Origin: an uncultured Ignavibacteriota bacterium
GTDB taxonomy: Bacteria > Bacteroidota > Ignavibacteria > Tepidaquicellales > Tepidaquicellaceae
Length of the DNA stretch: 64,000 nucleotides
Reading direction: 5' to 3'
Assembly: GCA_937983305.1 (NCBI GenBank)
Contig: CALKAJ010000030.1
Coordinates: forward strand, 20-64,019
Below, in pieces: positions 2,641 through 22,722 of this stretch (positions are counted from its first letter, which is position 1; each line of letters begins with the position of its first letter). The translations under genes were made by a program, and so were the position numbers. Below the pieces are notes generated by a model. The model searched no databases and was not told where the DNA came from. It was given only the letters and a program-made list of their open reading frames with translations.

Positions 2641-2656
2641 TATTATGATTTCATTT

Positions 2657-3838: not shown

Positions 3839-3929
3839 TTAGTTTATATAAATCGTCAAATCTCTTAAAATAACATAATAAATTATAATATTCCAAACAC
3901 TTTGTAAGTACTAATTAAGTATGGGAATA

Positions 3930-4511: not shown

Positions 4512-4524
4512 TATTGAATCTGAA

Positions 4525-6006
4525 TCATTTACCTGTTAAAGATTTGTACAGCTCCATATACTTCTTAGCAGAGGCTTTCCATGAAAAGTCGAGAGACATA
4601 CCGTTTCTTATTAATGAATACCATTTGTCTTTTTTATTCTGATAAACATTTAAAGCTGATTTTATTGCTTTAAGGAAATCTGTACCATTAAATTTATCAA
4701 ATAAAAATCCTGTTCCGTTTGGTTTGTTCCAGTCCGTAATAGTATCCGAAAGTCCGCCTGTATTTCTGACGATGGGAATAGTTCCGTAACTCAGGCTGTA
4801 AAGCTGATTATATCCGCAAGGTTCATAGAGAGAAGGCATTAAGAGCATATCTGCACCCGCTTCGATATTATGAGCGAGCTCTTCATCAAATCCTATATGA
4901 ACAATTAATTTGTCGGAATATAATTTTTTTGCTTTCATAAAATACTTCTGATATTTTTCTTCGCCGACTCCAAGAATTATTACCTGTACATTTTCTTTCA
5001 AAAGTTTTGGAAGAATATCAACAAGAAGTTCTATACCTTTATGCTGGACCATTCTGGAAATTACTCCGATTAATGGTATGTTCTCGTCATACCGAAACTT
5101 AAATTTACTCAGAAGCTCTCTTTTGTTTTCATATTTCAACGGTATTTCCTGATAAGTATATCTGTAGGGAATAATTCTGTCAACACTCGGATTCCAGATT
5201 GTATAATCGATTCCGCTTAATATTCCGCTAATATCTTTTTTCCTTTTATGGAAGACGTCATCTAAACCTTTATTTAAACCCTTATCGGAAATAATTTCTT
5301 TTGCATATCTTTCGCTGACCGTAGTAATTTTATCTGCATAAATTAAACCGGTTTTCAAAAAATTAAATTTACCCGATTGTCCGTGAAGTTGTTCTTCAAA
5401 AACTTTTTCGGGAAGACCTGTTTTGTTAAAAGTTGACTTAGGAAAAACTCCCTGATTTTCAAGATTGTGAATCGTTAAAATAGTTTTGATATCCTTAATA
5501 TGAGCATTATCCTTATAGACGGTTTTCAATAATGCAGGTATCAAAGCAGTTTGCCAGTCATTGCAATGAATAACATCAGGTTTCCATTGCAATATTTCAA
5601 GGATTTCAAGTACAGCTTTAGAGAAAAACAAGAATCTCTCGTCATTGTTTGAAAATTCCTTCTTTGTTCTTGGGTTATAATAGACTCCTTTATTCTTGAA
5701 AAAATCCTGATTCTCGAGAAGATAGATTTGTGCTTTAGTATTTCTGCCGTGAATAAAAGAAGACTTGATGCTGAATCTTGATGCTTTTTCATTAATCGAA
5801 ATCTTGAGGTCTTTTAATCGCTTGATTTCGTGTATTTGAAGTTTTCTTTCGTCTAAAGGTCCGTATTTTGGCGATATTATTCTAACTTCATTTCCAAGTG
5901 AATTTAGAGCTTGTGGCAATGAATTGGAAACATCAGCTAAACCGCCGGTTTTTGAATAAGGGAGAACTTCGCTTGTTACAAATAGAACATTAAAACCTTT
6001 TTTCAT
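4525..6006 (-). CDS. glgA: glycogen/starch synthase (GT5)
   Basis: 493 aa. N-terminal VLFVTSEVLPYSKTGGLADV (KTGGL motif). C-terminal PSLYEPCGYNQLYSLSYGTIPIVRNTGGLSDT. Confidence 0.93.
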   Translation of the reverse strand: MKKGFNVLFVTSEVLPYSKTGGLADVSNSLPQALNSLGNEVRIISPKYGPLDERKLQIHEIKRLKDLKISINEKASRFSIKSSFIHGRNTKAQIYLLENQDFFKNKGVYYNPRTKKEFSNNDERFLFFSKAVLEILEILQWKPDVIHCNDWQTALIPALLKTVYKDNAHIKDIKTILTIHNLENQGVFPKSTFNKTGLPEKVFEEQLHGQSGKFNFLKTGLIYADKITTVSERYAKEIISDKGLNKGLDDVFHKRKKDISGILSGIDYTIWNPSVDRIIPYRYTYQEIPLKYENKRELLSKFKFRYDENIPLIGVISRMVQHKGIELLVDILPKLLKENVQVIILGVGEEKYQKYFMKAKKLYSDKLIVHIGFDEELAHNIEAGADMLLMPSLYEPCGYNQLYSLSYGTIPIVRNTGGLSDTITDWNKPNGTGFLFDKFNGTDFLKAIKSALNVYQNKKDKWYSLIRNGMSLDFSWKASAKKYMELYKSLTGK

Positions 6007-6121
6007 CTAAGATTTTATTTTTTATGAAGATACTCATTTGTGGAAGGAAATTCAATACAAATAGTTTGGACTATGTTACCGGAACTATATGTATTTTTGA
6101 TTTAATTGTGTAAAATTTCAA

Positions 6122-6141
6122 GTGTGGAATAATTCCTCACA
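6122..6141. promoter_or_regulatory. palindromic operator/UAS-like motif, copy A (GTGTGGAATAATTCCTCACA)
   Basis: Contains the perfect palindrome GGAAT-A-ATTCC flanked by GTGT/CAC(A). It lies 19 bp upstream of the ATG of the sigma-54 activator gene. 17 of 20 positions are identical to copy B at 7541-7560. Confidence 0.45.
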
Positions 6142-6159
6142 ATTATTTATCTTTAGGGT

Positions 6160-7503
6160 ATGAAAGAGAATATAAAAATACTTTTGGTTGACGATGAATC
6201 AAATTCAACCCAGATTCTCGGAAAAGTTCTGAGAAAAAAGGGCTATGAAGTTTTCGAGGAAAATAACAGTATTCAGGCAAAAGAACTAATCATACGAAAT
6301 TTTTATGATATAATAATATCAGATTTGCAAATGCCTAATGTATCAGGAATGGATTTGCTCGAAATCAAACCTGAAAGAAGTATATTTATTATGATAACAG
6401 GCTATGGCTCGGTAGTGTCAGCAGTAGAATCTATGAAAAAAGGAGCATTTGATTATGTTAATAAACCTTTCAATCTTGATGAGTTTATTGTAAAGGTTGA
6501 AAAAGCGGCTGAAAAAGTAGTGATGCAATCTGAGCTCAACAAATTGAAGGAAATAGTTGAAAACGAAAACAGCTTCTGCGGAATTATAGGAAAAAGTGAA
6601 AAAATGCTCGAAATTTTCGATTTATTGAGAAATGTTTCAAAAGTTAATATAAATTCCCTGATATACGGAGAAAGCGGAACAGGGAAAGAGTTGATAGCAA
6701 AGGCAATCCATAACTTAAGTGAACGCAGTTCGAAGCCTTTTGTAGCCGTAAACTGCAGTGCAATACCCGAAAACCTGCTGGAAAGTGAACTTTTTGGGCA
6801 CACGAAAGGAGCATTTACCGGAGCTATTGAATCACAAAAGGGGGTATTTGAACAGGCAAATGAAGGAACATTATTTTTAGATGAAATTGGAGAAATGCCG
6901 TTTAATCTTCAGGCAAAACTGCTAAGAGTTTTGGAAAATTTTGAGGTTAAACCGCTTGGAAGCGACAAAGTAAAAAAAATTGATATTAGATTAATATCTG
7001 CAACAAACCAAAACCTTGAAGAATTAACATCCGAGAAAAAATTCCGGGATGATTTATATTATCGAATAGCAACTGTAACAATTAATCTTCCGCCTTTAAG
7101 AGCAAGGCGTGGAGATATACCTTTAATAGCATATAATTACCTCAAAAAGCTTGCCATAAAATTTGGAAGTAAATATGAAATTACTGCGGAGGCGATGCAG
7201 GCAATAACTAATTATGAATGGAAAGGTAATGTTAGGGAGCTTGAAAATGTTCTTGATATGGCAGCTATAAAAAGTCCCTGTAAAATTATTGATGTGTCAT
7301 CTTTGCCGTTTCAAAGCGGAACTCAATTTAATACCGAAGTTGATATTTTAAATGAATCAAACTTTTGTACACTTATGGAGGTTGAAAAATCCTACATAAA
7401 ACGAATTCTTGCGGCTACAGAGGGGAACAAACAGAGAGCTGCTGAAATTTTAAAAATTGATAGAAAAACTCTTTATAAAAAGATAAAAGATTATAATTTG
7501 TAG
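6160..7503 (+). CDS. sigma-54-dependent response regulator (NtrC-family enhancer-binding protein)
   Basis: 447 aa. Receiver domain (LLVDDE, ISDLQMP, NKPF). AAA+ domain with Walker A GESGTGKE and the sigma-54 contact loop GAFTGA. C-terminal Fis-type HTH (NKQRAAEILKIDRKTLYKKIK). Confidence 0.93.
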   Translation: MKENIKILLVDDESNSTQILGKVLRKKGYEVFEENNSIQAKELIIRNFYDIIISDLQMPNVSGMDLLEIKPERSIFIMITGYGSVVSAVESMKKGAFDYVNKPFNLDEFIVKVEKAAEKVVMQSELNKLKEIVENENSFCGIIGKSEKMLEIFDLLRNVSKVNINSLIYGESGTGKELIAKAIHNLSERSSKPFVAVNCSAIPENLLESELFGHTKGAFTGAIESQKGVFEQANEGTLFLDEIGEMPFNLQAKLLRVLENFEVKPLGSDKVKKIDIRLISATNQNLEELTSEKKFRDDLYYRIATVTINLPPLRARRGDIPLIAYNYLKKLAIKFGSKYEITAEAMQAITNYEWKGNVRELENVLDMAAIKSPCKIIDVSSLPFQSGTQFNTEVDILNESNFCTLMEVEKSYIKRILAATEGNKQRAAEILKIDRKTLYKKIKDYNL

Positions 7504-7610: not shown

Positions 7611-7626
7611 TGGCACGATATTTGCT
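7611..7626 (+). promoter_or_regulatory. sigma-54 (-24/-12) promoter
   Basis: TGGCAC-GATAT-TTGCT is an exact match to the TGGCAC-N5-TTGCW consensus. It sits in the intergenic region directly downstream of a sigma-54 activator gene and upstream of a cytochrome operon. G/C-rich consensus positions are unlikely by chance in this AT-rich DNA. Confidence 0.8.
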
Positions 7627-7693
7627 GGGATTTTGTGTGAAGAAAATTTTAAAAATATTAGTTTTTAGTCTGAATCCTGAAATGTGTAAATTG

Positions 7694-8008
7694 ATGAAAA
7701 AGTTTTTTGCAAAGTTAAATTATAAATTTGACTGCGTGAAAATAGAAGTTGATTCGGATTGGAAAAATTTAATATTTGACGAGGAAATAGACTGCATTAT
7801 TCTCGATACCAACATAAACTCCGATATTCAAAGCGACATAAGAGAAAAATTCAATAAATCTTGTTTTTTTCTACTTCCCTCATTTTCAAGTGAAATTCAT
7901 TTGGATACTAATTCCGCTGATTTAATTTCAGAGCCGTTCAAATTCAGCGAATTAGAAAAGAACTTAAATGAACTATACGAATCTAAATCTGCTACGGATG
8001 CAAATTAA
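7694..8008 (+). CDS. small receiver-like (degenerate REC) protein; start uncertain (candidates GTG 7637, ATG 7682, ATG 7694)
   Basis: Residues IDCIILDTNINSD, FFLLPSF and ISEPFKFSELEKNL follow the CheY-fold pattern (beta3-Asp, beta4, K-P-F) but with Lys replaced by Glu. The in-frame upstream stretch KKILKILVFSLNPEMCKLMKKFF looks like beta1/alpha1 with the acidic pair replaced by SL. Confidence 0.5.
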   Translation: MKKFFAKLNYKFDCVKIEVDSDWKNLIFDEEIDCIILDTNINSDIQSDIREKFNKSCFFLLPSFSSEIHLDTNSADLISEPFKFSELEKNLNELYESKSATDAN

Positions 8009-9863
8009 TAAACTAATTGCAATATTATATTCATTTGTCGTATTAATTATTTTTGTTTCCGTTGTTACGTCTTCTGTTCCGGTTAAGGCAAAATATTCAG
8101 ATGACTGCCTTGTTTGTCACGAAGATAAGGACTTAACAATGGAAAAGAACGGGAAAAAGATATCGTTATATGTAAATCCATCAGTTTATAAAGCATCCGT
8201 CCACGGCGGCGCTGATTGCAAAGATTGTCACGTTGGTTATAATCCTGAAGAATTGCCGCATAATCCGAAAAGCTCAGGTGTGAATTGTAACGAATGTCAC
8301 GATATAAAAAAGAATCCTTCTTCGGCTCATAACAACGTAAAATGTTATACTTGTCACGGCGACCATAACGTTATTCCTGCAAAAGAATTTGCTAAATCAG
8401 ATAACTGTTTCACCTGTCATAATACAAAGAGCGTAAGTTCTTTTAAACAATCTGTTCATTTTAGAAAAAATATTTCCTGCGATAAATGTCATAAAAGCGG
8501 TCACGATGTTATAAAAATTTCAAAAAAAGAGTCAACAAGGCTTTGTGCTCAATGTCACAATAAAGCTTTTACTGAAGTTAATAACGGCGTACACAAGCAG
8601 TCATCGGGAAAAGGTAAGACACCAATTTGCGTTGATTGCCACGGTTATCACAGTATAAACACCAACAAACTTACCATAGAAACACAATCGTGTTATAAAT
8701 GCCATCTTAATGAGAAGTTGTTTCCCGGAAAAGAAAAGGGCTCAGCAGATTTTGTTGCGGAATATGAGAAAAGTGTACATAATTCTGTAAGAAAAAACGG
8801 AATACCTGCCGCTTCCTGTACGGATTGCCACGGAGACCATTTGATTAAGGGCTCAAAAGATCTTCAAACAAAAGACGGAATTCTTGAATCGTGTATAAGA
8901 TGCCACGAAAAAGCAGTAAAAGAGTTTAAGATGTCTAAACACGGAAACAATATTGAGAAGAGTCCGGGAAATCCGTTTGAATGTACAGATTGTCATGGAG
9001 AACATGGAATATTAGCAGTAAAGCTTGACACCAAACTTTCAAAGTTGATGCAAACTGATATGTGCCTTGAGTGCCATAAGGACAGTAAGTTTCAATCTAA
9101 ATACAAACCCGGAACGGAATTACATATTAATGATTATTTAAACAGCGCCCATTACAAAAAACTGAAAGAGGGCAACCCAAATGCCGCATCTTGTACAGAT
9201 TGTCACGGCTCACACTCAATGCTCAATGCACTTGACCCTAATTCTCCCGTAAGTCCAAAAAACATTTCTGCAACCTGCGGGCAGAATAATTGTCATATAA
9301 AAATCTATAACGAATATAAAGGTTCCATACACGATGTCTCAATTCAGACAAAAGAAAAATCAGATGCTCCAAGCTGCGTAAATTGTCACGGAAGTCACGG
9401 ATTGTTAAAAAAAGATGACCAAATGAATCCTTTGGCAAAACCAAACGGAGTTGTTCAGTTATGTGCTGATTGCCATTCTTCTGTCAGAATTATTGAAAAC
9501 AATAACCTGCCCAAAGGCATAGTATCCGATTTTAATAATAGTTTCCACGGACTCGCATTGCGTGGGGGCTCACAGGATGCAGCAGACTGTGGAAGCTGTC
9601 ACGGTGTTCATAATATACGTCCTTCTTCCGACCCATTATCAACCATACACGACGACAATCTGCCTCAAACCTGCGGCAGCTGCCATCCCGGTGCGACTCT
9701 TGCAACTTTCAAAACTCCGATTCATCTTGTGGAAACTGCAAAGGAAAATCCTTTACTTAAATGGATTGAGATTTTTTACATATTTTTAATAATAGCAACA
9801 ATTGGATTTATGGTGTTACATAATATTTTAGATTTAATAAAGAAATTAAGAACCAAACATTAA
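7998..9863 (+). CDS. membrane-anchored multihaem c-type cytochrome (18 CXXCH + 1 CX4CH)
   Basis: The ORF track gives 7968-9863; I prefer the ATG at 7998 (MQINKLIAILYSFVVLIIFVSVV, a signal or anchor). There are 19 haem motifs arranged as nine two-haem modules plus one extra. C-terminal TM helix WIEIFYIFLIIATIGFMVLHNIL followed by basic residues. Confidence 0.9.
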   Translation: MQINKLIAILYSFVVLIIFVSVVTSSVPVKAKYSDDCLVCHEDKDLTMEKNGKKISLYVNPSVYKASVHGGADCKDCHVGYNPEELPHNPKSSGVNCNECHDIKKNPSSAHNNVKCYTCHGDHNVIPAKEFAKSDNCFTCHNTKSVSSFKQSVHFRKNISCDKCHKSGHDVIKISKKESTRLCAQCHNKAFTEVNNGVHKQSSGKGKTPICVDCHGYHSINTNKLTIETQSCYKCHLNEKLFPGKEKGSADFVAEYEKSVHNSVRKNGIPAASCTDCHGDHLIKGSKDLQTKDGILESCIRCHEKAVKEFKMSKHGNNIEKSPGNPFECTDCHGEHGILAVKLDTKLSKLMQTDMCLECHKDSKFQSKYKPGTELHINDYLNSAHYKKLKEGNPNAASCTDCHGSHSMLNALDPNSPVSPKNISATCGQNNCHIKIYNEYKGSIHDVSIQTKEKSDAPSCVNCHGSHGLLKKDDQMNPLAKPNGVVQLCADCHSSVRIIENNNLPKGIVSDFNNSFHGLALRGGSQDAADCGSCHGVHNIRPSSDPLSTIHDDNLPQTCGSCHPGATLATFKTPIHLVETAKENPLLKWIEIFYIFLIIATIGFMVLHNILDLIKKLRTKH

Positions 9864-10561
9864 TGAAACCTTCTTCCGGCAAAAAATATTTAAGAATGTC
9901 TTTAAACGAAAGAATACAACATATACTTTTGTTAACTACATTCATTACATTGGTGATAACCGGTTTTGGACTGCTATATCCCGAAGCATTTTGGGTGAAA
10001 TGGATAGTTGCAATTGTCGGAAAAAACGCATTCGAAGCGAGAGGAGTTGTTCACAGAATAGCAGCAGTAATTATGGTGTTTGCTTCTGTTTATCATATTT
10101 TCTATATCATTTTTACGAAGAGAGGAAGAAGATTCGTATTTGATATGTGGTTCAATCTACAGGATATTAAGGATATGTTTCTGTATTTAAAATATCTTAT
10201 AGGTCTGTCAAAAGATAAACCAAAATTCGGCAGATTTAGCTACATAGAGAAAATGGAATATTGGGCAGTTATATGGGGCACTGTTGTTATGGGTGCCACA
10301 GGTGCAGTGCTTTGGTTTGAAAACGAATTTCTACCGATAATCGGTATGGAAGGAATGTATATCGCAACGGCAATACATTTGTACGAAGCCGTACTCGCTT
10401 CATTATCTATTCTTGTATGGCATTTTTATTTCATATTTATAAATCCCGATGTTTTTCCGATGAATAAGGCATGGATGACCGGTTTTCTGACACGCGAACA
10501 AATGGAACACGAACATCCGCTGGAACTCGAGCAGATTGAATCAAGTAATACTAATGAATAA
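9863..10561 (+). CDS. dihaem cytochrome b, FdnI/HydC (Ni/Fe-hydrogenase b-type cytochrome) family
   Basis: 232 aa. The start overlaps the upstream stop (TAATG). N-terminal LNERIQHILLL plus four predicted TM helices with conserved His (VVHRIAAV, SVYHIF, ATAIHLYEA, VWHFYF), typical of quinone-interacting b subunits. Confidence 0.85.
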   Translation: MKPSSGKKYLRMSLNERIQHILLLTTFITLVITGFGLLYPEAFWVKWIVAIVGKNAFEARGVVHRIAAVIMVFASVYHIFYIIFTKRGRRFVFDMWFNLQDIKDMFLYLKYLIGLSKDKPKFGRFSYIEKMEYWAVIWGTVVMGATGAVLWFENEFLPIIGMEGMYIATAIHLYEAVLASLSILVWHFYFIFINPDVFPMNKAWMTGFLTREQMEHEHPLELEQIESSNTNE

Positions 10562-10633: not shown

Positions 10634-11191
10634 ATGAAGGGCAAAAAAACTTTTCTAACGCTCACTGTTGTTGCGGCAATTGTTCTTTCTTTTTCTGCAT
10701 TTAATTTCCATCAAGGTGTGGGACAATTTAAGTACATTGGCGTAACAAAATGTGTAAGCGCCTGTCACAAATCAGACGCACAAGGCAAGCAGCTTGATAT
10801 TTGGAAAAATTCCAAACATTCAATGGCATATAAAACGCTTGAAACTCCCGAAGCAGATAAAATTGCTCAGGAAAAAGGCTTTCAAACGAAAGCCGCCGAA
10901 ACACCGAACTGTTTAAAGTGTCACGTTCTTGGTAAAGATATGGACCCGTCAGAATTTACTGAAAACTTTGATATGAAAGACGGTGTTCAGTGTGAAAGTT
11001 GTCACGGACCCGGTTCTGAATATAAGTCAATGTCAATTATGAAAGACAAACAAAAATCAATTGAAAACGGACTTATTGTGCATTCAGAAAAGGAAGCTTT
11101 TTGTACTAACTGTCATAATTCTGAAAGCCCAACTTTCAAAGGTTTTGAATATGACAAGATGTGGGATGCGATTAAACATCCTAAACCGTAA
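10634..11191 (+). CDS. periplasmic tetrahaem cytochrome, cytochrome c554-like
   Basis: 185 aa. Signal peptide. Haem motifs CVSACH (CX3CH), CLKCH, CESCH, CTNCH. The CESCHGPGSEY context resembles the c554-type multihaem family. Confidence 0.8.
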   Translation: MKGKKTFLTLTVVAAIVLSFSAFNFHQGVGQFKYIGVTKCVSACHKSDAQGKQLDIWKNSKHSMAYKTLETPEADKIAQEKGFQTKAAETPNCLKCHVLGKDMDPSEFTENFDMKDGVQCESCHGPGSEYKSMSIMKDKQKSIENGLIVHSEKEAFCTNCHNSESPTFKGFEYDKMWDAIKHPKP

Positions 11192-11219: not shown

Positions 11220-11262
11220 CCCGTCCCTGTTAAACAGGGACGGGTTAGAATTTAATTTTTTT
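11220..11262 (+). terminator. intrinsic terminator
   Basis: Perfect 10-bp GC-rich stem CCCGTCCCTG / CAGGGACGGG with a TTAAA loop (11220-11244). A T7 run lies at 11256-11262, not immediately adjacent. Confidence 0.65.
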
Positions 11263-11283: not shown

Positions 11284-12585
11284 ATGAGAAAAATTATCTA
11301 CTTTTTTATTCCTCTTTTTGCGATTCTCTTCATTACTACCGGTTTATATTCTCAAACTGTTAATGCAAGATTCAGTACTTCGTTTTATACCTGGGAAAGG
11401 TATGATTCAATTGGCTCTGAATCTTCCACTAAACATTTAAGAGCATATCAGAATATTCTGCTTGATGTATCGCAGAAAAAATGGTCTTTTAACACAAATG
11501 CTCAGCTGGAAGGGGATATAATGGAAAAATCCGGAAGAGGATTTGCCTACAGATTTTACAGTCTGTATATCAAAGGTTCAAATCTGTTTGATGTAATGGA
11601 TGTTAAACTCGGAAGGCAATATGTTTCTGCAGGTGTTGGCAGGGGATATATTGACGGTGCACATCTGAAATTAAAACTCGGAAAAAGCAAAGAATATCAG
11701 TTAACTGCTTATGGAGGCGGACTTTCTCCGCTCTCGTATGATTTTGATTATGGAGAAAAATATCAGTTAAAAGATAACATCTCTTATGGAGCAATGTTCC
11801 AGTATTATGGCGTTAAAGATTTAATGCTTGGCGTCAGCTACTATAACAAACACAGAGCTGTTCCGAATTACTATGCTCCAAGACTTGACAGCGCCCTGTT
11901 TACAAAAATTGTTGAAATACAAACAGAACCCTTTGCCGACCAGCTCGCAGGTTTTGATTTTTCATTTTTCAAACCTTCTTATCAGGCAATGGGAAAGGTC
12001 TATTATGACGTTAACCTGAAAAAACTATTCAGAGCGGATGTCAATGCAGGTTTTAATGTTGCCCAAAATCTTCGTTTAAATGTAGGATTTTTGTATCGCG
12101 AACCTCAAATAAGTTACAATACGATTTTCTGGGTTTTTCAGCATAAGCCTCTTTCCGAATTTGAAGCAGGCTTAGATTACACTCTTCTGAAACAATACAA
12201 TATATATTTTAAGGTTTCAGATGTAATGTATGATAACGATAATTCAGCAAAATTCTCATTTGGATTTTCACATGCGAATTACGGATTATCTTTCGTTAAA
12301 TATACGGGATATGCAGGTGAATCCGACGGTGCATTTGGTTATTTTAATTATGAACTTCTCAGGTCGAAACTCGCTGTTACAACCGGTCTTAATTATTCCA
12401 ATTACAGTATTAAAAATTATTCCGAAGATAAAGTAAGTGCGTTTTCAGGAATGCTCGGATTGGTTTACAGACCTGTTAATCATTTCACCGTTGATTTACA
12501 GGGACAGATTATTACTAACAAAATTTATAAGACCGATACAAGAATATTACTTGGTTTTAACTATTGGTTATTTAAGAAATTTTAA
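11284..12585 (+). CDS. outer-membrane beta-barrel (porin-like) protein
   Basis: About 433 aa. Signal peptide MRKIIYFFIPLFAILFITTGLYSQ. Amphipathic beta-strand pattern throughout. C-terminal ...GFNYWLFKKF ends in Phe, as in BAM substrates. Sits between cytochrome genes. Confidence 0.75.
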   Translation: MRKIIYFFIPLFAILFITTGLYSQTVNARFSTSFYTWERYDSIGSESSTKHLRAYQNILLDVSQKKWSFNTNAQLEGDIMEKSGRGFAYRFYSLYIKGSNLFDVMDVKLGRQYVSAGVGRGYIDGAHLKLKLGKSKEYQLTAYGGGLSPLSYDFDYGEKYQLKDNISYGAMFQYYGVKDLMLGVSYYNKHRAVPNYYAPRLDSALFTKIVEIQTEPFADQLAGFDFSFFKPSYQAMGKVYYDVNLKKLFRADVNAGFNVAQNLRLNVGFLYREPQISYNTIFWVFQHKPLSEFEAGLDYTLLKQYNIYFKVSDVMYDNDNSAKFSFGFSHANYGLSFVKYTGYAGESDGAFGYFNYELLRSKLAVTTGLNYSNYSIKNYSEDKVSAFSGMLGLVYRPVNHFTVDLQGQIITNKIYKTDTRILLGFNYWLFKKF

Positions 12586-12596
12586 AATTCAACATT

Positions 12597-13865
12597 ATGA
12601 GAATTATGAAATTTTACGCTTTGCTTTTTGTCTGTTTAGCTTTTTTCGTTTCGATAACTGCTTATAATTTTTATTCCGGCGGTTCCGTTACTTCAAAAGG
12701 AATTTTTACAAAACAGGTGAAAGCAAACGATAATCCTGATAACAGGACAATTATCAAATTCAATCACTCAAAACACCTCAAAGATGCAGGTACTCAATGC
12801 ACTGATTGTCATAGTAAGGCGCCAAATTCTGTTAATGCACTCGAGAGCCTGATTCCCATAAAGGCTTCCTGTGCGAACTGCCATGATGTTGAAGATAAGA
12901 AAGAATGTGGACTTTGCCATTTTGAGGGAGTTTATAAAAAACTTAATCCGACTGTCAGAGAGTTACATTTTAATCATCAAAAACATATCAAGGACAGCGG
13001 AATGCAATGCCTCGATTGCCACAAAAATATGCCGGATTATAAATATTCGAGTGACAATCCTCAAAAATATCCTGAAATGGAAGTATGTGCAAAATGTCAT
13101 AACGATAATGATGCCACGATGAGCTGCGAAAAATGTCATACTAATCTGACTAATCTGAAACCGATGAATCATCTCAGGTCAAACTTTCTCAATGAGCACA
13201 AATGGGTATTTGATGCGGCAGGCGAAAAAAATAATTGTATGATGTGCCACTCAGAAAATTTCTGTCAGGTTTGTCATAGCGCCGGAAAATTCAAAGGGTC
13301 TAACACAAAGAAGGATTTTTATGCTCCGTTCTGGACAAAAAATTCAGGTACAAGAATTGATAGAGCAGAATTGCAGAAACTTAATACCGTTCACGAATTG
13401 AATTATCTATATACACACGGTATGGATGCATTGCATAAATCCTATGAATGTAAAACCTGTCACGACCCGGTCGAGTTCTGTTCTGCTTGTCATCAAACCG
13501 GCGGAAATCTTGTAACAGGCTTTGCACCTAAGAGCCATCTTGCACCTAACTTCAAAACTTTTGGCGTTGGAACAGGCGGCGGATTACATGCTGAGCTTGC
13601 AAGGAAAGATATTGAAGCCTGTCAATCTTGCCACGATGTAAACGGCGGTGACCAGATATGTATTAAATGCCATTTTGATAACGATGGTGTAAAAGGCACA
13701 AATCCCCGAACTCACGAATGGGGCTTTATGAAAGATGAAAAAGGAATCTGGCACGATACACAAGGAGCAATTTGCTTTAGATGTCATACCGATGCAAACG
13801 CAAGACCAAACGGAATTGCCGGAATAGGTTTCTGTGGTTATTGCCATAGTAAAGCAGTTAAATAA
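12597..13865 (+). CDS. periplasmic multihaem c-type cytochrome (14 CXXCH)
   Basis: 422 aa. Signal peptide and 14 CXXCH. Two N-terminal units FNH-x-KH...CxDCH...CxxCH...CxxCH resemble cytochrome c7/c3 trihaem domains. These are followed by closely paired CXXCH motifs. Confidence 0.9.
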   Translation: MRIMKFYALLFVCLAFFVSITAYNFYSGGSVTSKGIFTKQVKANDNPDNRTIIKFNHSKHLKDAGTQCTDCHSKAPNSVNALESLIPIKASCANCHDVEDKKECGLCHFEGVYKKLNPTVRELHFNHQKHIKDSGMQCLDCHKNMPDYKYSSDNPQKYPEMEVCAKCHNDNDATMSCEKCHTNLTNLKPMNHLRSNFLNEHKWVFDAAGEKNNCMMCHSENFCQVCHSAGKFKGSNTKKDFYAPFWTKNSGTRIDRAELQKLNTVHELNYLYTHGMDALHKSYECKTCHDPVEFCSACHQTGGNLVTGFAPKSHLAPNFKTFGVGTGGGLHAELARKDIEACQSCHDVNGGDQICIKCHFDNDGVKGTNPRTHEWGFMKDEKGIWHDTQGAICFRCHTDANARPNGIAGIGFCGYCHSKAVK

Positions 13866-13897
13866 AAAATAACAGTAAATTGAATATTAAGTTTAAT

Positions 13898-14770
13898 ATG
13901 AAAAAACATAATCTTTTATATCTTCTTCTGATACCTGCATTTATAATGATAATAACATTATATAGCTGCAGTAAACTTGAAGATAATCTGGTTAATGCTC
14001 CCAAAGCAGGTATTCACCCTGACGGCTGGACTAATCCCATTAATGCAAATTTTCACGGGAAATATTTTTTCTCCAACAAATGGGATTTTAAAATGTGTAC
14101 ACAGTGTCACGGTGCTGATTACAACGGAGGCAACACAGGTAAGAGTTGTAATGACCCCTCCTGTCACGGCAGTTCAACCCCCGAAGATTGCAAACTTTGT
14201 CATGGTAACAGAAGCAATACAATTTTCCCGCCGTTAGCATTAAATGGTTCGTCTTCCGTAACGTATATTGGGGTTGGTACCCATAACACTCATTTGAATA
14301 GAGATAGTTCAATCAGATTCTCGGCAAGACTGAGGTGTGTTTCCTGTCATAAGTCAATTTCAGGCTTTTTTGATCCGAACCACATCGGCTCAAATCCTGA
14401 TAACATTGCTGAGGTAGTATTTGATTCTCTTGCCATTACAACTACAAATGGAATTACTCCAAATCCGGTTTGGAACAGGAATAACCCGCAATCCTGCGCA
14501 GTTACTTATTGTCACGGTAATTTCAAAAACGGAAATTACAGGCTGAATCCGACCACAATGACAAATCCCGTTTGGACAGATCCTAATTCGGTATATTGCG
14601 GCACCTGCCACGGTAATCCGAGTACAGGAAATCCGCTACCGGGCGGAACCCATATTCAGGGCTTTACAATTTATAATTGCTATTTTTGTCACGGCTCGGT
14701 TATTAATAATGCCGGAAATATTATTAATAAATCCAAACATATTAACGGCGTAGTTAATATGAACCAATAA
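13898..14770 (+). CDS. lipoprotein multihaem cytochrome with CX4CH...CXXCH motifs (5 CXXCH + 2 CX4CH)
   Basis: The ORF track start is 13880 (TTG); an ATG at 13898 gives MKKHNLLYLLLIPAFIMIITLYSC with a lipobox Cys. Motifs CTQCH, CNDPSCH, CKLCH, CVSCH, CAVTYCH, CGTCH, CYFCH. The SCAVTYCHG...YCGTCHG...CYFCHG pattern matches the Geobacter CxxxxCH...CXXCH domain family. Confidence 0.85.
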   Translation: MKKHNLLYLLLIPAFIMIITLYSCSKLEDNLVNAPKAGIHPDGWTNPINANFHGKYFFSNKWDFKMCTQCHGADYNGGNTGKSCNDPSCHGSSTPEDCKLCHGNRSNTIFPPLALNGSSSVTYIGVGTHNTHLNRDSSIRFSARLRCVSCHKSISGFFDPNHIGSNPDNIAEVVFDSLAITTTNGITPNPVWNRNNPQSCAVTYCHGNFKNGNYRLNPTTMTNPVWTDPNSVYCGTCHGNPSTGNPLPGGTHIQGFTIYNCYFCHGSVINNAGNIINKSKHINGVVNMNQ

Positions 14771-14800
14771 GTTATATCGTTTAAAATCAGTTTCAAAGTT

Positions 14801-14838
14801 AAAAAGACCGTCAATTCACCGGCGGTCTTTTTATTTTT
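14801..14838 (+). terminator. intrinsic terminator
   Basis: AAAAAGACCG ... CGGTCTTTTT stem with a 13-nt loop, followed by a TTATTTTT tail, 30 bp after the stop codon. Confidence 0.7.
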
Positions 14839-14868
14839 ATAAATTGTGTGAAAAAGCAAAAAATCAAA

Positions 14869-14964: not shown

Positions 14965-14980
14965 TGGCACAGAATTTGAT
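14965..14980 (+). promoter_or_regulatory. candidate sigma-54 promoter (one mismatch in the -12 element)
   Basis: TGGCAC-AGAAT-TTGAT, about 48 bp upstream of the ATG at 15028. Caveat: a perfect TATAAT hexamer (14982-14987) follows directly, so a sigma-70-type promoter is an alternative. Confidence 0.5.
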
Positions 14981-15027: not shown

Positions 15028-16422
15028 ATGAAAAGATATTTTACGTTTTTATTAGTTGTTTCTTTTATCTTCGTTTCTGAGTCCGTTTTTTCGCAATCAA
15101 CAAGTTTCCATATGCTTAGAAAAGGTCACTCTTACTTTTATGCATCGACAAATGGTGGTTTTGAAACCATTTCAAACATCCCGATTAACGCACTTCGCTG
15201 CTTGAAATGTCACCCCGGTAAACTGGCTAATAATACCCCGGTTGACACAGGCACTTATGCGCCTTCCTGTTTAGATTGCCATAATTTTTCAATTGGGAAT
15301 GCTGTACCGGATACCATTTGCTTAAGATGCCACAGCAGACAAAAGGTCGAAAAGGCAAACTTTACGGATAAACACAGATCTGCCGGTATGACCTGCGTAA
15401 CCTGTCATATCAAGGACGAACTGCATGCCGATGCAACAAATTATCAAACCCCGTTTGATACTGTACAGGGTAAGACTTGTTCAACTGTAGGATGTCATAA
15501 CGTCGTTCCTGTAACTCCCGATGATTCACTGGCTCACGCAATTCACAACGACAAGCTCGAATGTTCTTCCTGCCATGCGAGGTCTCAAATAGCCTGCTAT
15601 AACTGCCACTTCGAAACAGAAGTTTGGCAGGGGATGAGAGGCTTCAAAAGACCGATTGGTCAATATAAAGGCTTCATAATGCTGGCAAGACTACCAAAAA
15701 CCGGAAAAGTTGGAATTGTAAATTACCAATCCATCATTTATCAGGGAAATAAAACGTTTAACGCATGGGGTCCTTATTATCCGCATACAATTATGCCGAA
15801 GGACTCGACAAGAAGTTGCAGCGGATGCCACAATGCTCCAACAATTCAGGAATACAATAACACAACAAAAATTGTTGTAGCAAAATGGGATTCCACTCTG
15901 ACTCCTAAGAAGATTGTTCATACTCAGGGAATGATTCCGATTCCTCCTGATTATCTGACTTCATTGGTTTTTGATTTTGCAAACTATATCGGAAAAGTTG
16001 ATACTGCATATACAGACCCGTCGAAATGGGTATATGCAAAGACCGGCTTAACCGGAAATCAAATGCTATCTCAATATGTATTGCCGTTGACCGCTGCTCA
16101 AATGACTGCTCTTGGTTCAACAATTGGTATTACACCTATCAGCACTGAAGTACCAAGTAATTTTGAGCTGTTCCAGAACTTCCCGAATCCATTCAACCCG
16201 AGTACGATTATCAAATTTAACATTGCCAAATCTGCAAATGTAACGGTAAATGTTTATAATTCACTTGGAAAGCTTGTTACAACTTTGGTTTCTCAGAAGT
16301 TAAATGCAGGCACATATCAGGTTGATTTTGAAGGAAAAGAACTTTCAAGCGGTATCTATTTCTATTCAATGATAGTTGACGGAAATGTCTCCGCAGCTAA
16401 AAAGATGCTTTTGGTAAAGTAA
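15028..16422 (+). CDS. multihaem c-type cytochrome (7 CXXCH + 1 CX4CH) with a C-terminal T9SS sorting domain
   Basis: 464 aa. Signal peptide. Motifs CLKCH, CLDCH, CLRCH, CVTCH, CSTVGCH, CSSCH, CYNCH, CSGCH. The last ~80 aa, FELFQNFPNPFNPSTIIKFNI...VYNSLGKLV...GTYQVDFEGKELSSGIYFYSM...KKMLLVK, form a classic Por/T9SS type A C-terminal domain. Confidence 0.9.
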   Translation: MKRYFTFLLVVSFIFVSESVFSQSTSFHMLRKGHSYFYASTNGGFETISNIPINALRCLKCHPGKLANNTPVDTGTYAPSCLDCHNFSIGNAVPDTICLRCHSRQKVEKANFTDKHRSAGMTCVTCHIKDELHADATNYQTPFDTVQGKTCSTVGCHNVVPVTPDDSLAHAIHNDKLECSSCHARSQIACYNCHFETEVWQGMRGFKRPIGQYKGFIMLARLPKTGKVGIVNYQSIIYQGNKTFNAWGPYYPHTIMPKDSTRSCSGCHNAPTIQEYNNTTKIVVAKWDSTLTPKKIVHTQGMIPIPPDYLTSLVFDFANYIGKVDTAYTDPSKWVYAKTGLTGNQMLSQYVLPLTAAQMTALGSTIGITPISTEVPSNFELFQNFPNPFNPSTIIKFNIAKSANVTVNVYNSLGKLVTTLVSQKLNAGTYQVDFEGKELSSGIYFYSMIVDGNVSAAKKMLLVK

Positions 16423-16637: not shown

Positions 16638-17099
16638 ATGAAATATATATCACTTCTTACGCTGGTTCTGTTGGTACTTTCAGGTTGCTCCAAGATGGAG
16701 GAAAAGAAAGAAACAACCGGAAATAAAACTATGCCTCCAATGACTAAGGATGGTATGAATGACCCGCATTCAAATATGTCCGGAATGCAAAATAAGAACG
16801 ATTCTCAGGGAAATGATGAAGCCTTAAAGTTATCTCAGGAAGCAAATGAGTTTGAAAAAGCGTATGAGAAAACTAAAGATGATAAAACAAAAAAACAGCT
16901 TGTTGAAAAACATCTTGCAGCAGCTTTAGCACTTTCCCCGTCAACAAATCCTGAGCATATGAATAAAGAAACAATAAGAACCTCTTTAAAGCATTTCAAG
17001 AGAGTTCTTGAGCTTGACCCGGAAAATGCCGACGCAAAAGCAGGAAGAGAAGAGATTGTTCAAATGTATGAAATGATAGGTGTACCGTTGCCGGAATAA
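16638..17099 (+). CDS. lipoprotein with a Met/His-rich linker and a TPR-like C-terminus, function unknown
   Basis: 153 aa. Lipobox LVLSGC. TMPPMTKDGMNDPHSNMSGMQ segment. C-terminal LKHFKRVLELDPENADAKAG is TPR-like. Confidence 0.6.
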   Translation: MKYISLLTLVLLVLSGCSKMEEKKETTGNKTMPPMTKDGMNDPHSNMSGMQNKNDSQGNDEALKLSQEANEFEKAYEKTKDDKTKKQLVEKHLAAALALSPSTNPEHMNKETIRTSLKHFKRVLELDPENADAKAGREEIVQMYEMIGVPLPE

Positions 17100-17147: not shown

Positions 17148-17807
17148 TTGAATATTGTTTATAAATCGGCGGTTTTTATTATAATAACAGGCGTGTTACT
17201 GGCAGCTTTCTTAGTGCCAATTCCAAATATTCCTGCACTTGGAGAGAAGGCAAGAATTTTATTCCTCCACGTGCCTACTGCCTGGCTAAGTGTTGTTGCT
17301 TTTTTAATTTCAATGATATACTCAGTTATTTATCTCAGGAAAAGAGATATTTATGCTGATGTAAAAGCTTTCGCTTCGGCAGAAATTGGTTTTTTGTTTT
17401 GCATTCTTGCAACTGTAACGGGCTCTGTATGGGCAAAATTCAGCTGGGGTTCTTTCTGGAACTGGGACCCGAGAGAGACATCAATTTTTATTTTACTTCT
17501 TATTTACGGAGCGTATTTTTCATTAAGGTCTGCAATTGATAATCCTGAGCAGAAAGCAAAACTTGCTTCGGTATATTCCATTATTGCTTTTATAACTGTG
17601 CCGTTTTTTATTTTTATTATGCCGAGACTTGTAGAAACTTTACATCCTGATCCTATTATAAACGACAGAGGTAAGATAAATATGTCCCCGAATATGCAGA
17701 TAATATTTTTTAGCTCATTGACCGGGTTTACTCTGCTCTTTTTCTGGATGTTAAATGTTAAAGTACGGCTTGAGAATTTAAGAATTAAAAAATTAAACGT
17801 TAATTAA
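17148..17807 (+). CDS. ccmC: cytochrome c maturation (System I) haem exporter protein CcmC
   Basis: 219 aa. WGSFWNWDPRET is the WWD haem-handling motif. Polytopic membrane protein. Only a TTG start is possible because an in-frame TAA lies at 17136. Confidence 0.9.
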   Translation: MNIVYKSAVFIIITGVLLAAFLVPIPNIPALGEKARILFLHVPTAWLSVVAFLISMIYSVIYLRKRDIYADVKAFASAEIGFLFCILATVTGSVWAKFSWGSFWNWDPRETSIFILLLIYGAYFSLRSAIDNPEQKAKLASVYSIIAFITVPFFIFIMPRLVETLHPDPIINDRGKINMSPNMQIIFFSSLTGFTLLFFWMLNVKVRLENLRIKKLNVN

Positions 17808-17818
17808 AAAATAAATTT

Positions 17819-17932
17819 ATGAGCGATATATATGTAGTTTTAACTATAGCATTGATAATCTGGTTTGGATTGTTTGTCTATCTGTTTATGATTGACAGGA
17901 GAGTTAAAAAACTTGAAGAAGAAAATAAATAA
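17819..17932 (+). CDS. ccmD: CcmD-like small membrane protein (37 aa), absent from the ORF track
   Basis: ATG at 17819. MSDIYVVLTIALIIWFGLFVYLFMIDRRVKKLEEENK* has one TM helix followed by a basic/acidic tail. It lies exactly between ccmC and ccmE, where ccmD normally sits. Confidence 0.6.
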   Translation: MSDIYVVLTIALIIWFGLFVYLFMIDRRVKKLEEENK

Positions 17933-17938
17933 AATTTT

Positions 17939-18325
17939 ATGAATAACAGAATTAAATTAATTATTGGAGTTGTCATTGTTTCAGTTTTTGTATCTATTGG
18001 TTTTTTCAAATTTATGGATACAAAAATAGAATATGTGAATTTCCGGGAGGCAACCGCAAAATCAAAAGTTGTGGAAGTTAAAGGCGTATGGCTGAAAGAC
18101 AAAGAAACAAAATTTGACCCGGGAACAAGTACATTCGAATTCTATATGAGAGATGATTATAACACCGAGATGAAAGTCATTTATCCCGGAGGTAAACCAA
18201 ATAACTTTGAAGTTGCAGACGCAATTGTTGTAAAAGGTCAGGTTAAAAACGGTTCCTTCCATGCAAAAGATATTCTGACAAAATGTCCGTCCAAATACGA
18301 AGGCAACGGACAGGATGTAAAATAA
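17939..18325 (+). CDS. ccmE: haem chaperone CcmE, Cys-variant (CXXXY)
   Basis: 128 aa. N-terminal anchor and OB-fold-like body. AKDILTKCPSKYEG aligns with E. coli AKEVLAKHDENYTP, so the haem-binding His is replaced by Cys116 (TGT at 18284-18286). Confidence 0.88.
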   Translation: MNNRIKLIIGVVIVSVFVSIGFFKFMDTKIEYVNFREATAKSKVVEVKGVWLKDKETKFDPGTSTFEFYMRDDYNTEMKVIYPGGKPNNFEVADAIVVKGQVKNGSFHAKDILTKCPSKYEGNGQDVK

Positions 18326-18352
18326 TTTCTCACCAAAAATTTAAATCTTATT

Positions 18353-20638
18353 ATGATAGGAAAAATTCTCATTTACATAACATTAGCTGCAAGTTTTGTT
18401 TCCATTGTAAGCTATGCTTTAACTTATTTCAGAAAAAGCAATCTGAAGAAAATATCAAGATTATTTTTTCATATAACCGTAATCAGTGTTCTCTTTGCTT
18501 CCGCATATTTACTCAGCCTGATTCTGTCTCATCAGTTCCAGTATTCCTACGTTTGGGAATATAGCAGCCGCTCTCTTGGAACTCCTTTGCTGATATCTAC
18601 TTTTTTCGCAGGGCAGGAAGGCAGTTTTTTGCTTTGGGCTTTGTTTGCATCAATTATAGGAATATTTCTGATTAACAGTGTTTCTAAGAATTCTGATTTT
18701 GAAGCACCCGTTATGATGATATATACACTGGTGATTGCATTTCTCGCAGTCCTTCTGATTCTCAAATCGCCATTCACTACGATATGGGAAGCATTCCCCG
18801 GACAGGTTCAGGAAAATTATATGCCCGAAGACGGTAGAGGTCTAAACCCGATTTTACAGAATTTCTGGATGGTTATACACCCCCCGATTTTATTTGTTGG
18901 TTTTGCTTCTCTTGCCGTTCCATTTGCATTTGCACTTGCAACTTTATTCAACAAAAAATACAACGAATGGGTTGTCTATGTAATGCCCTGGATGTTGTTT
19001 GCATCTGCTACACTTGGATTGGGTATAATACTCGGCGGTTATTGGTCTTATGGTGTGCTTGGCTGGGGCGGTTATTGGGCTTGGGACCCGGTCGAAAATT
19101 CTTCGTTGATTCCCTGGCTTGTTTCGATTGCGGCTTTGCATACTCTGATAGGTCAAAAAGCTACCGAAGGTTATAAAAAGACAAATATCATTTTATCAAT
19201 TATTGCTTATCTTCTCGTTCTTTATTCTACCTTTCTCACAAGAAGCGGAATACTTCAGGATTCTTCAGTTCACTCTTTTGTAAAACCGGGAATGGAAGTT
19301 TATATCGCTCTTGTTCTGTTTATTTCATCATTCATTATAATTTCTGTAATTGCACTTGCTGTCAGATATAAGTCTCTTAGTGAGGTAGCTAAAAAAGATA
19401 CGAAAGTTAATATTCTTTCAAGGGAAGCAATTTTATATATCGGTTCTTTAATTATTCTCGCATCCGGTGCCATCATAATTGCAGGTACAAGTTTACCGAT
19501 ATTTTCAAAGAGTACTGTTGATATAAGTTTTTACAATCAGATGAATATGCCAATTGCCATCGTAATGCTTGTATTTGCCGCAATAGCATTCTTTCTCGAT
19601 TGGAGAACAACAGATACTAAAAAGTTCTTCAATAAGCTGATTACACCCGCTGCGCTCGCTCTCGTTACAACTGTTATAATTTCAATATTTGCAATAAATG
19701 AAATAGTCTATATTATTTTCACATTTGCAATATTTTTTGCCTTCTTCTCGGGGATTGTAAAACTCGGGAATGTTTTTAAAGCAAAGAAAATAACTTTTGG
19801 AGCTGCCATTGCCCATATCGGACTTGCACTTTTCTTTCTCGGAATTATTGCTTCTTCGAAATACAGCGAAGAAGTAAGGATACCTTTGGAAATGGGAAAA
19901 CCATCGGAGGCGTTTGGATACGCATTTACTTACAAGGGAGCTGAACCTTTCAGCGACCCTGAGAATCCTAATGACGAGAAATATTATTTCAACGTATTGA
20001 TGGAAAAAGATAATAAGGAGATGGTTCTCAAACCTGTTATGTATTTCAGCAGTTTCAACGAAGGTGTGATGAAGAATCCCTATGTAGCAAGTTTTATAAC
20101 AAAGGATATTTATCTTTCTCCTATTGAGTTAATTGCTCCACAGACGTATGATCCTAAAGATGAGCACGTTGTCGGGCAGAACGAAGAAAAAGAAATCAAT
20201 GGAGTTAAAATCAAATTTATTGATTTTGACCTGAGTCAGGCACCAATGGGTAATAAAACAGAAGCGAGTGACTACTCAATTTTTGCGAATATAAACGCAA
20301 CTTATAACGGGAAAACACTTCCCGTAAAACTTGAATTGAAATATATTGGCGGCTCGCCTGAAGCAACGGAAATAAAACTGCCACAGGACGAGAAAATTTC
20401 ATTGATGTTTACAGGTATGAATGTTAAAAACGAGCAAAACCCCGTTTCTTCCGCTAAGATTGTTGTCCTTGACGAAGAGAAGAAATCTAAATTTAAAAAG
20501 CAGGATGAGATTATGCTTGTAAGCGTTTCAATAAAACCCTACATTGGGGTATTATGGCTTGGCTCGTTTATAATGATTTTTGGATTCTTCTATTCAATTA
20601 TTAAAAGAGTCAAGGATTTGAAAAAAAATAAAAGTTAG
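18353..20638 (+). CDS. ccmF: cytochrome c haem lyase subunit CcmF
   Basis: 761 aa polytopic protein. WGGYWAWDPVENSSLIPW is the WWD motif. Includes a long periplasmic CcmF C-terminal region and a final TM helix. Confidence 0.93.
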   Translation: MIGKILIYITLAASFVSIVSYALTYFRKSNLKKISRLFFHITVISVLFASAYLLSLILSHQFQYSYVWEYSSRSLGTPLLISTFFAGQEGSFLLWALFASIIGIFLINSVSKNSDFEAPVMMIYTLVIAFLAVLLILKSPFTTIWEAFPGQVQENYMPEDGRGLNPILQNFWMVIHPPILFVGFASLAVPFAFALATLFNKKYNEWVVYVMPWMLFASATLGLGIILGGYWSYGVLGWGGYWAWDPVENSSLIPWLVSIAALHTLIGQKATEGYKKTNIILSIIAYLLVLYSTFLTRSGILQDSSVHSFVKPGMEVYIALVLFISSFIIISVIALAVRYKSLSEVAKKDTKVNILSREAILYIGSLIILASGAIIIAGTSLPIFSKSTVDISFYNQMNMPIAIVMLVFAAIAFFLDWRTTDTKKFFNKLITPAALALVTTVIISIFAINEIVYIIFTFAIFFAFFSGIVKLGNVFKAKKITFGAAIAHIGLALFFLGIIASSKYSEEVRIPLEMGKPSEAFGYAFTYKGAEPFSDPENPNDEKYYFNVLMEKDNKEMVLKPVMYFSSFNEGVMKNPYVASFITKDIYLSPIELIAPQTYDPKDEHVVGQNEEKEINGVKIKFIDFDLSQAPMGNKTEASDYSIFANINATYNGKTLPVKLELKYIGGSPEATEIKLPQDEKISLMFTGMNVKNEQNPVSSAKIVVLDEEKKSKFKKQDEIMLVSVSIKPYIGVLWLGSFIMIFGFFYSIIKRVKDLKKNKS

Positions 20639-21644: not shown

Positions 21645-21680
21645 TTTTTATTAATCAAGGAAATATAAAGAATTTAGAAA

Positions 21681-22715: not shown

Positions 22716-22722
22716 AAATAAT

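Follow-up and report, generated by a model that had tools for sequence, protein, structure and literature searches.

In Geobacter sulfurreducens the genes of the porin-cytochrome (Pcc) complexes, on which Liu et al. are said to have reported in 2014, stand in the order OmbB-OmaB-OmcB and OmbC-OmaC-OmcC. MtrCAB of Shewanella (6R2Q) follows the same logic, with a periplasmic decahaem wire that is sheathed by a barrel and capped at the cell surface by a lipoprotein cytochrome. The described system closest to the one presented here is the pcc cluster of Ignavibacterium album JCM 16511, IALB_1840-1837 (Shi, Fredrickson & Zachara 2014, Front Microbiol 5:657, PMC4245776). It comprises an outer-membrane protein (OMP) resembling porins (IALB_1839), a periplasmic cytochrome of about 400 residues with 14 haems, which was then the largest known Pcc periplasmic cytochrome (IALB_1838), an outer-membrane cytochrome with atypical CXnCH motifs (IALB_1837) and an associated periplasmic cytochrome (IALB_1840). 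The same study predicted 18-22 strands for Pcc porins and took BLAST E < 0.01 as its criterion of homology. Pcc-like clusters, or homologues of the Geobacter pcc porin (OmbB), have since been reported repeatedly in Ignavibacteria(les) by metagenomic papers; the terms multiheme, porin, OmcB, ferrihydrite and outer membrane are absent from the Melioribacter multi-omics paper. Here we describe a gene trio of this kind in a 64,000-nucleotide stretch of DNA from an uncultured Ignavibacteriota bacterium (contig CALKAJ010000030.1, positions 20 to 64,019), which we call the window. We consider it probable that the trio encodes a Pcc-type conduit for outward electron flow across the outer membrane, orthologous to IALB_1839-1837. 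We infer that the three products form a complex, how this complex is placed in the membrane and in which direction electrons pass through it.

All three genes lie on the forward strand of the window, the G+C content of which is 34%. The first, at 11284-12585, is the counterpart of IALB_1839 and encodes a porin-like OMP with a signal peptide, a predicted 22-strand barrel and a C-terminal Phe (...NYWLFKKF). Its open reading frame (ORF) starts either at GTG 11281, giving 434 residues, or at ATG 11284, giving 433, and contains no haem motif. The second gene (12597-13865, 422 residues, counterpart of IALB_1838) starts 11 nucleotides past the OMP stop codon and encodes a periplasmic cytochrome c with an N-terminal signal peptide that has no conserved Cys. 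It contains exactly 14 CXXCH motifs, three of which follow FNHSKH at residues 55-60 and another three FNHQKH at residues 125-130. The third gene (13880-14770, 296 residues, with ATG 13898 as the likely true start) is the counterpart of IALB_1837 and encodes a lipoprotein cytochrome with seven haem sites and a CxxxxCH/CxxCH domain. Its lipobox, LYSC, ends at Cys30, and of its haem motifs five are CXXCH and two are CX4CH, CNDPSCH at residue 90 and CAVTYCH at residue 206. The motif content of the trio is far beyond chance. An earlier reading of this DNA, referred to below as the original prediction, had described an OMP of about 433 residues ending in Phe, a signal-peptide cytochrome with 14 CXXCH motifs and two FNH-x-KH trihaem units, and a LYSC lipoprotein cytochrome with two CX4CH and five CXXCH motifs, and our ORF and motif counts reproduced all three descriptions. 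Rfam and tRNA scans of the window gave no matches.

The window matches the I. album pcc cluster gene for gene, with the same four genes in the same order and no substantive difference. The trio is the same system or a strain-level orthologue of it; it was already known and is not a discovery. It has the composition of the I. album-type subfamily of Pcc (an OMP, a 14-CXXCH cytochrome and a CX4CH lipoprotein) and, more generally, that of a Pcc cluster, namely a barrel of ~18-22 strands, an adjacent Sec-exported 14-haem cytochrome and an adjacent multihaem lipoprotein cytochrome. The gene order is also that of Geobacter sulfurreducens. However, the Geobacter complex has about 20 haems (8+12), whereas the window trio has 14+7, so the distribution is inverted here, with the longer haem chain in the periplasm and a small protein at the surface. 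Purification and proteoliposome assays have been carried out on the Geobacter complex, whereas the complex of the window is predicted. The lipoprotein matches TIGR01904 (CxxxxCH/CxxCH domain; 54.1 bits against a cut-off of 27), a family named for Geobacter. Compared with MtrCAB, which has 26 strands and 10+10 haems, the trio has 22 strands and 14+7 haems.

The AlphaFold2 (AF2) model of the OMP was built on 32 homologues and reached a predicted local distance difference test score (pLDDT) of 79.5 and a predicted template modelling score (pTM) of 0.69. It shows 22 long strands, the first of which directly follows the signal peptide. The modelled barrel is unplugged, and its loops are uniformly short, without an inward-folding L3-type loop. 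A short low-confidence hairpin at residues 197-213 is a loop insertion, because distant relatives have a gap there in the hhalign alignment. The barrel geometry formula with n = 22, S of about 24 and textbook parameters gives a Cα-Cα diameter of ~40 Å, compared with ~47 Å for a 26-strand barrel of the MtrB type. MtrB is about 700 residues long. The original prediction had called the OMP much smaller than MtrB, and this is true of its length (434 against about 700 residues) but not of its architecture (22 against 26 strands). Despite its shorter sequence, the modelled barrel would not be much narrower than that of MtrB, which would largely answer the question of how haems could thread it. The possibility, raised at the same time, that the barrel might prove small or plugged was not borne out by the model, in which 22 strands run from the signal peptide on and no plug is present. 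A Foldseek search of the Protein Data Bank (PDB) with this model returned only generic outer-membrane barrels at template modelling scores (TM) <0.5 (FimD, AlgE, OccK/OprD and OmpM), and MtrB was not among the top 50 fold matches.

Conservation in the OMP family is highest in the motif REPQISYNTIFWVF at residues 273-286 (window about 12100-12141). P275, N280, F283 and F286 are invariant within it, and distant members carry it in the form R-P-V-NS-FS. In the AF2 model, residues 277-287 form a loop with a pLDDT <50. The 273-286 loop is a candidate site at which the barrel may contact or dock its partner, the 14-haem cytochrome.

In this cytochrome, all 14 CXXCH motifs are invariant among 36 aligned orthologues, three of them at 37% identity, and exactly 14 are found in 73 of 76 orthologues. 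The last motif, also invariant, lies 5 residues from the C-terminus. The protein matches Pfam Cytochrome_C7 with 62.5 bits, and its profile aligns over positions 45-184 with the dodecahaem protein GSU1996 (3ov0) at E 2e-26 and with ActA-type pentahaem subunits of alternative complex III (ACIII) at about 1e-14. The first six haems can thus be assigned by homology to two c7-type trihaem domains, an assignment confirmed by the 3ov0 match; the domains of GSU1996, a c7-polymer 'nanowire' cytochrome, are homologous to this part of the protein. For the eight C-terminal haems, the profile search against the PDB found no solved relative.

The lipoprotein cytochrome is probably the cell-surface partner of the conduit. 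The lipobox Cys is invariant in all 73 orthologues, and the family pattern, present in 65 of them, is six CXXCH plus one CX4CH, or seven haem sites. Only the lineage of the window has a CX4CH at residue 90, where 2 residues are inserted into what is a CXXCH in 65 of the 73 orthologues. Following the lipobox Cys, the 73 orthologues share the pattern S-[EKD]-x-[DEK]-[DN]. The export signal of Bacteroidota surface lipoproteins is K-(D/E)2 (Lauber 2016), and the acidic stretch resembles it. In some orthologues, apparent in-frame stops were considered as selenocysteine codons and rejected, as they come from tblastn alignments that run beyond the true stop. At one locus alone (L012, 10579-11466) the lipoprotein cytochrome gene has several frame disruptions, and the OMP and 14-haem genes there are intact; either the assembly is wrong at this point or the surface component is decaying.

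The conservation of the trio was analysed in a scan that took one genome per species and gave 79 orthologous loci (numbered from L001), all from metagenome-assembled genomes (MAGs) of Ignavibacteriota or Bacteroidota. The best match was a MAG named Ignavibacterium album, with 98% protein identity in the OMP and with 91-95% of DNA positions identical along 13 kb, and the two belong to one genus or species group. Among MAGs of Ignavibacterium, the OMP of L001 was 98% and that of L002 94% identical, and all named homologues of the OMP belong to Ignavibacteria. Synteny was assessed by tblastn of the window proteins on the 79 loci and by ORF-level counts, wherever the contig reaches far enough. The OMP gene is followed by that of a 14-haem cytochrome in 74 of 74 loci, in 70 of them within a strict 400 nucleotides. 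In the other four, the 14-haem match starts between 58 nucleotides before and 549 nucleotides after the point where the OMP is inferred to end; three of these have inferred ORF ends that overlap or are wrongly placed, and at L026 the best match lies ~0.5 kb downstream. The lipoprotein cytochrome comes next after the 14-haem gene in 70 of 70 loci (68 by the strict count), and in about 62 of 69 a c554-like cytochrome gene stands upstream of the OMP. For these three gene pairs the spacers have medians of 12, 22 and 87 nucleotides. The order OMP, 14-haem cytochrome, lipoprotein is thereby kept in essentially all of ~70 related genomes, and the synteny on which the original prediction depended held.

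A profile search with the OMP of 1.84 billion representative sequences extended the family to 433 clusters at E <= 1e-3, with full-length matches down to about 20% identity. Candidate division KSB1 was among ten distant clusters that were looked up. Among the best 150 of the 433 matches, no Geobacter name occurs, and the named ones are Ignavibacteriota and KSB1. A profile of distant members gave 19 matches in a further search. Three distant loci on long contigs (L080, L081 and L082) have an OMP gene followed by the gene of a cytochrome with 13+1 or 14 haem motifs, all 14 of which align with those of the window's 14-haem protein. The OMPs of these distant members are 20-25% identical, and the Ignavibacterial and distant OMP profiles match each other in hhalign with a probability of 100% and E 4e-67. 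The third gene is of another kind: in L080 (38% G+C) it encodes a 1073-residue lipoprotein with 26 CXXCH and 5 CX4CH (31 haem motifs), and in L081 and L082 (65-68% G+C) a 131-residue monohaem lipoprotein. Barrel and 14-haem wire thus make up the conserved unit, and the surface partner is exchangeable. A bolder reading, which we advance tentatively and hold to be somewhat less probable than an even chance would make it, is that these proteins constitute a separate, widespread family of conduits and not a peripheral copy of the Geobacter Pcc. Such a family, with its 433 clusters in several phyla, would combine a 22-strand barrel and an invariant 14-haem wire, of sufficient length to span the outer membrane and extend ~8-10 nm into the periplasm, with an exchangeable surface module (7-haem, 31-haem or almost none). 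In the I. album lineage, the electrons would then go to a multihaem cytochrome that leaves the cell through the type IX secretion system (T9SS).

A mechanism for the probable conduit can be drawn from these features and from the neighbouring genes described below. Exported by Sec and matured by the neighbouring Ccm proteins, the 14-haem cytochrome would be placed inside the lumen of the barrel, where it would act as an insulated haem wire. The two c7-type trihaem domains at its N-terminus would hang into the periplasm, and its C-terminal haem would come to lie near the cell surface. There the wire would meet the 7-haem lipoprotein anchored in the outer leaflet, placing about 21 haems in series. 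Electrons would enter from quinol through a cytochrome b, a membrane-anchored 19-haem cytochrome and a soluble c554-like tetrahaem cytochrome. In this lineage, an 8-haem cytochrome secreted by the T9SS may take them further out. Expression of the pathway would probably be under the adjacent sigma-54 activator.

The claim of the original prediction that this is a Geobacter-type porin-cytochrome conduit in an organism of the Fibrobacteres-Chlorobi-Bacteroidetes (FCB) group is supported by the barrel model, the synteny, the TIGR01904 match and the published I. album cluster. Several observations nevertheless weigh against it. Homology to MtrA or MtrB, which would place the trio with MtrCAB/MtoAB/PioAB, was not found: the 14-haem profile reached MtrA (6r2q_A) only at E 0.81, with no detectable kinship, and the OMP profile has no sequence match in the PDB, nor any in Pfam or NCBIfam. 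The AF2 model of the lipoprotein is of low confidence, with a pLDDT of 66.6, and had no fold match in the PDB (Foldseek). The acidic motif following its lipobox Cys was considered as proof of surface exposure and then downgraded, as the neighbouring 153-residue lipoprotein, with CSKMEEKKE, has such a stretch too and the motif is therefore not discriminating. In the published trees, IALB_1839 and IALB_1838 are outliers in both cases and distant from all five Pcc groups (PMC4245776). Finally, I. album reportedly can use neither Fe(III) nor Mn(IV) oxides (Iino 2010, in the form in which it is cited in PMC4245776).

The last point would also suit a complex of the same build that works mainly inwards, drawing electrons from a donor outside the cell (for example Fe(II) minerals, reduced humics, a cathode or a partner cell) and delivering them to the periplasm and quinone pool, as proposed for MtoAB and PioAB. 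We find this unlikely. Haem wires are reversible in principle, the reported lack of growth of I. album on these oxides fits, and Cyc2 homologues have been reported in Ignavibacteriaceae MAGs. Furthermore, some distant members have only the 131-residue monohaem lipoprotein in place of a large surface cytochrome, an 'mto-like' layout of the kind that has been tied to oxidisers (Fortney 2018). However, no pcc cluster was found in a known Fe(II) oxidiser (PMC4245776). Melioribacter roseus and Ignavibacteriales enrichments are tied in the literature to Fe(III) reduction and to anodes, and there is no carbon-fixation context in the window. The FdnI-type cytochrome b and its multihaem partner together resemble CbcL, which oxidises quinol in metal reducers.

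A respiratory module confined to the periplasm (acting, for example, on a soluble or colloidal compound such as polysulfide, selenite or arsenate), in which the OMP would be an ordinary substrate porin that admits the compound and has no haem chain inside, is very improbable: the OMP does lack a recognisable family and has only generic porin-like fold matches (OccK/OprD, AlgE, OmpM), neighbouring cytochromes are weakly similar to proteins of the selenite/tellurite Ext operon (NCBIfam, E about 0.01) and non-metal substrates have been suggested for some pcc clusters (PMC4245776), but the 22 strands, short loops and missing L3-type loop are unlike the 16-18-strand diffusion porins, the strict adjacency of the OMP and 14-haem genes, usually at 12 nucleotides and maintained to 20% identity across phyla, argues for a physical partnership, the most conserved barrel motif is the very loop that AF2 cannot place without a partner, and the cluster encodes no catalytic subunit (molybdopterin or NrfA-type CXXCK).

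The outward Pcc-type conduit remains the preferred reading, and its genes do not stand by themselves. The trio appears to be part of a longer operon driven by sigma-54, which consists, in order, of a receiver-like ORF, a 19-haem cytochrome, a cytochrome b, a c554-like cytochrome, a hairpin and the trio. Upstream of it, at 6160-7503 (+), lies the gene of a sigma-54-dependent response regulator composed of a receiver, an AAA+ sigma-54 activator domain and a Fis helix-turn-helix (Pfam Response_reg 73.7 bits, Sigma54_activat 238 bits, HTH_8 49.7 bits), which probably controls the cluster. A sigma-54 -24/-12 element, TGGCACGATATTTGCT, is found just 3' of this gene at 7611-7626 (+) and matches the consensus perfectly. 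In 21 of 42 loci (L001-L067), the pattern TGGYAY-N5-TTGCW occurs 337-400 nucleotides upstream of the 19-haem gene, and with these 21 sites included the pattern has only 27 matches in 1.16 Mb of forward strand.

The first gene after this promoter is a small ORF of ~108 residues with receiver-like motifs (DCIILD, PFKFSELE) at 7682-8008 (+). It has no Pfam match, its start at 7682 is inferred, and in 32 loci tblastn finds it immediately upstream of the 19-haem gene. The 19-haem gene itself (7968-9863, +) encodes a 631-residue cytochrome with 18 CXXCH and one CX4CH, a C-terminal hydrophobic helix and matches to Cytochrom_c3_2, Cytochrome_C7 and NapC/NirT, which is probably an inner-membrane-anchored periplasmic haem chain. 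Its stop codon overlaps by 1 nucleotide the start of the gene of a 232-residue membrane cytochrome b of the FdnI / Ni_hydr_CYTB type (9863-10561, +; PF01292, 45.7 bits against a cut-off of 30.1), the probable quinol-oxidising partner. In Geobacter CbcL, a cytochrome b is fused to a multihaem c domain and the protein has 9 haems, whereas in the window the two are split into two polypeptides with 19 haem sites. A single called product with Ni_hydr_CYTB and 11 CXXCH motifs is present in L081 (1-2058, -) and L082 (8-2086, -), and in L029 a single reading frame of 895 residues (2552-5239) spans the tblastn matches of both the 19-haem protein and the cytochrome b. By its domain content, the pair can be regarded as a split CbcL-like module, encoded as one product in L081 and L082 and probably in L029.

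The next gene, at 10634-11191 (+), is the counterpart of IALB_1840 and encodes a signal-peptide tetrahaem cytochrome of 185 residues with three CXXCH and one CX3CH (Pfam Cytochrome_C554, 63 bits), probably a periplasmic shuttle. In the lineage of the window, this gene and that of the cytochrome b are 72 nucleotides apart. In all five other loci that were inspected (L006, L013, L019, L029 and L042, about 5250-7320), a further cytochrome of 620-690 residues with 16-17 CXXCH and one CX4CH is encoded between the two, and judging by the spacing the same is probably true of most others.

The gap between the c554-like and OMP genes contains a G+C-rich hairpin with an interrupted T-rich tail at 11220-11262 (+; 11-bp stem at 11220-11244). 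The best 50-nucleotide stretch of this region, which includes a weaker neighbouring stem, has a folding energy of about -23.5 kcal/mol. The terminator scan did not call it, as its T-run rule was not satisfied. A stable hairpin of unrelated sequence occupies the same gap in more than half of the orthologous loci. At the other end, a terminator-like hairpin with a T run at 14800-14843 (+; 13 base pairs, including 5 G-C, and then TTTTTATAAA) marks the end of the operon, and here the scan found the 13-bp stem at 14800-14833 followed by TTTTTAT. The original prediction had taken the trio for a self-contained unit between two terminators. Both stems are present, but the upstream gene and promoter are conserved, and the trio is not autonomous because only ~36 nucleotides separate the 11220-11244 stem from ATG 11284, the c554-like neighbour is conserved and so is the upstream sigma-54 promoter. 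The 11220 hairpin is probably a leaky or partial terminator, or an element of mRNA stability, inside the operon and not a boundary of the trio. A separate promoter for the trio was considered and rejected: a sigma-70 scan gave 30 sites against 27.7 expected from shuffled sequences, and there is little space between the stem and the ATG.

Downstream of the operon, another sigma-54-like element, TGGCACAGAATTTGAT, with 1 mismatch, lies at 14965-14980 (+), 48 nucleotides before the next cytochrome gene. It is not significant by itself (2 sites against 1.37 expected), and its position and strand fit. The gene that follows (15028-16422, +) encodes a 464-residue cytochrome with seven CXXCH and one CX4CH, which ends in a T9SS C-terminal sorting domain (Por_Secre_tail). 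This domain is of type A and occupies residues 385-460 (PF18962, 39.3 bits against 27; TIGR04183, 36.6 against 23). A T9SS-tagged cytochrome at this position occurs only in L001 and L002, that is, in the I. album lineage, where it could possibly be the extracellular end of the pathway. A full-text search found, in the literature that it covered, no paper that joins type IX secretion with a multihaem cytochrome, and the export of a haem-loaded cytochrome by the T9SS may therefore be undescribed.

At 16638-17099 (+) there follows the gene of a 153-residue lipoprotein (LSGC, then SKMEEKKE) that has no family match and in many loci keeps its place between ccmC and the gene of the lipoprotein cytochrome; it may be an accessory of cytochrome maturation or another surface lipoprotein. 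The System I maturation genes ccmC, ccmE and ccmF are found at 17148-20638 (+; Pfam Cytochrom_C_asm, CcmE and CcmF_C), and many orthologous loci likewise have ccm genes downstream of that for the lipoprotein cytochrome. After them, at 20760-24444 (+), come genes of the beta and alpha subunits of the electron-transfer flavoprotein and of an acyl-CoA dehydrogenase. These may possibly link the oxidation of fatty acids or amino acids to the quinone pool that would feed the conduit.

To the published I. album case, the present analysis adds the AF2 strand count, a survey of conservation in about 79 genomes and beyond them in a wider family, the setting of the trio within its operon and behind its promoter, and the T9SS cytochrome. 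What is new in it is the family-level picture, in which a 22-strand barrel is paired with an invariant 14-haem wire and the surface module can be swapped, together with the apparent sigma-54 control and the T9SS tag on a cytochrome. Ignavibacteriota abound in iron-rich springs, sediments, anode biofilms and wastewater reactors, and the pcc cluster is the main genomic ground for calling them electroactive. The predicted 22-strand barrel is wide enough for a haem wire, and the apparent control of the pathway by sigma-54 may explain the absence of Fe(III) reduction by I. album under the conditions tested. The 14-haem partner has stayed invariant while the barrel diverged to 20% identity, and the surface component is swappable, both of which can serve as guides for experiments.

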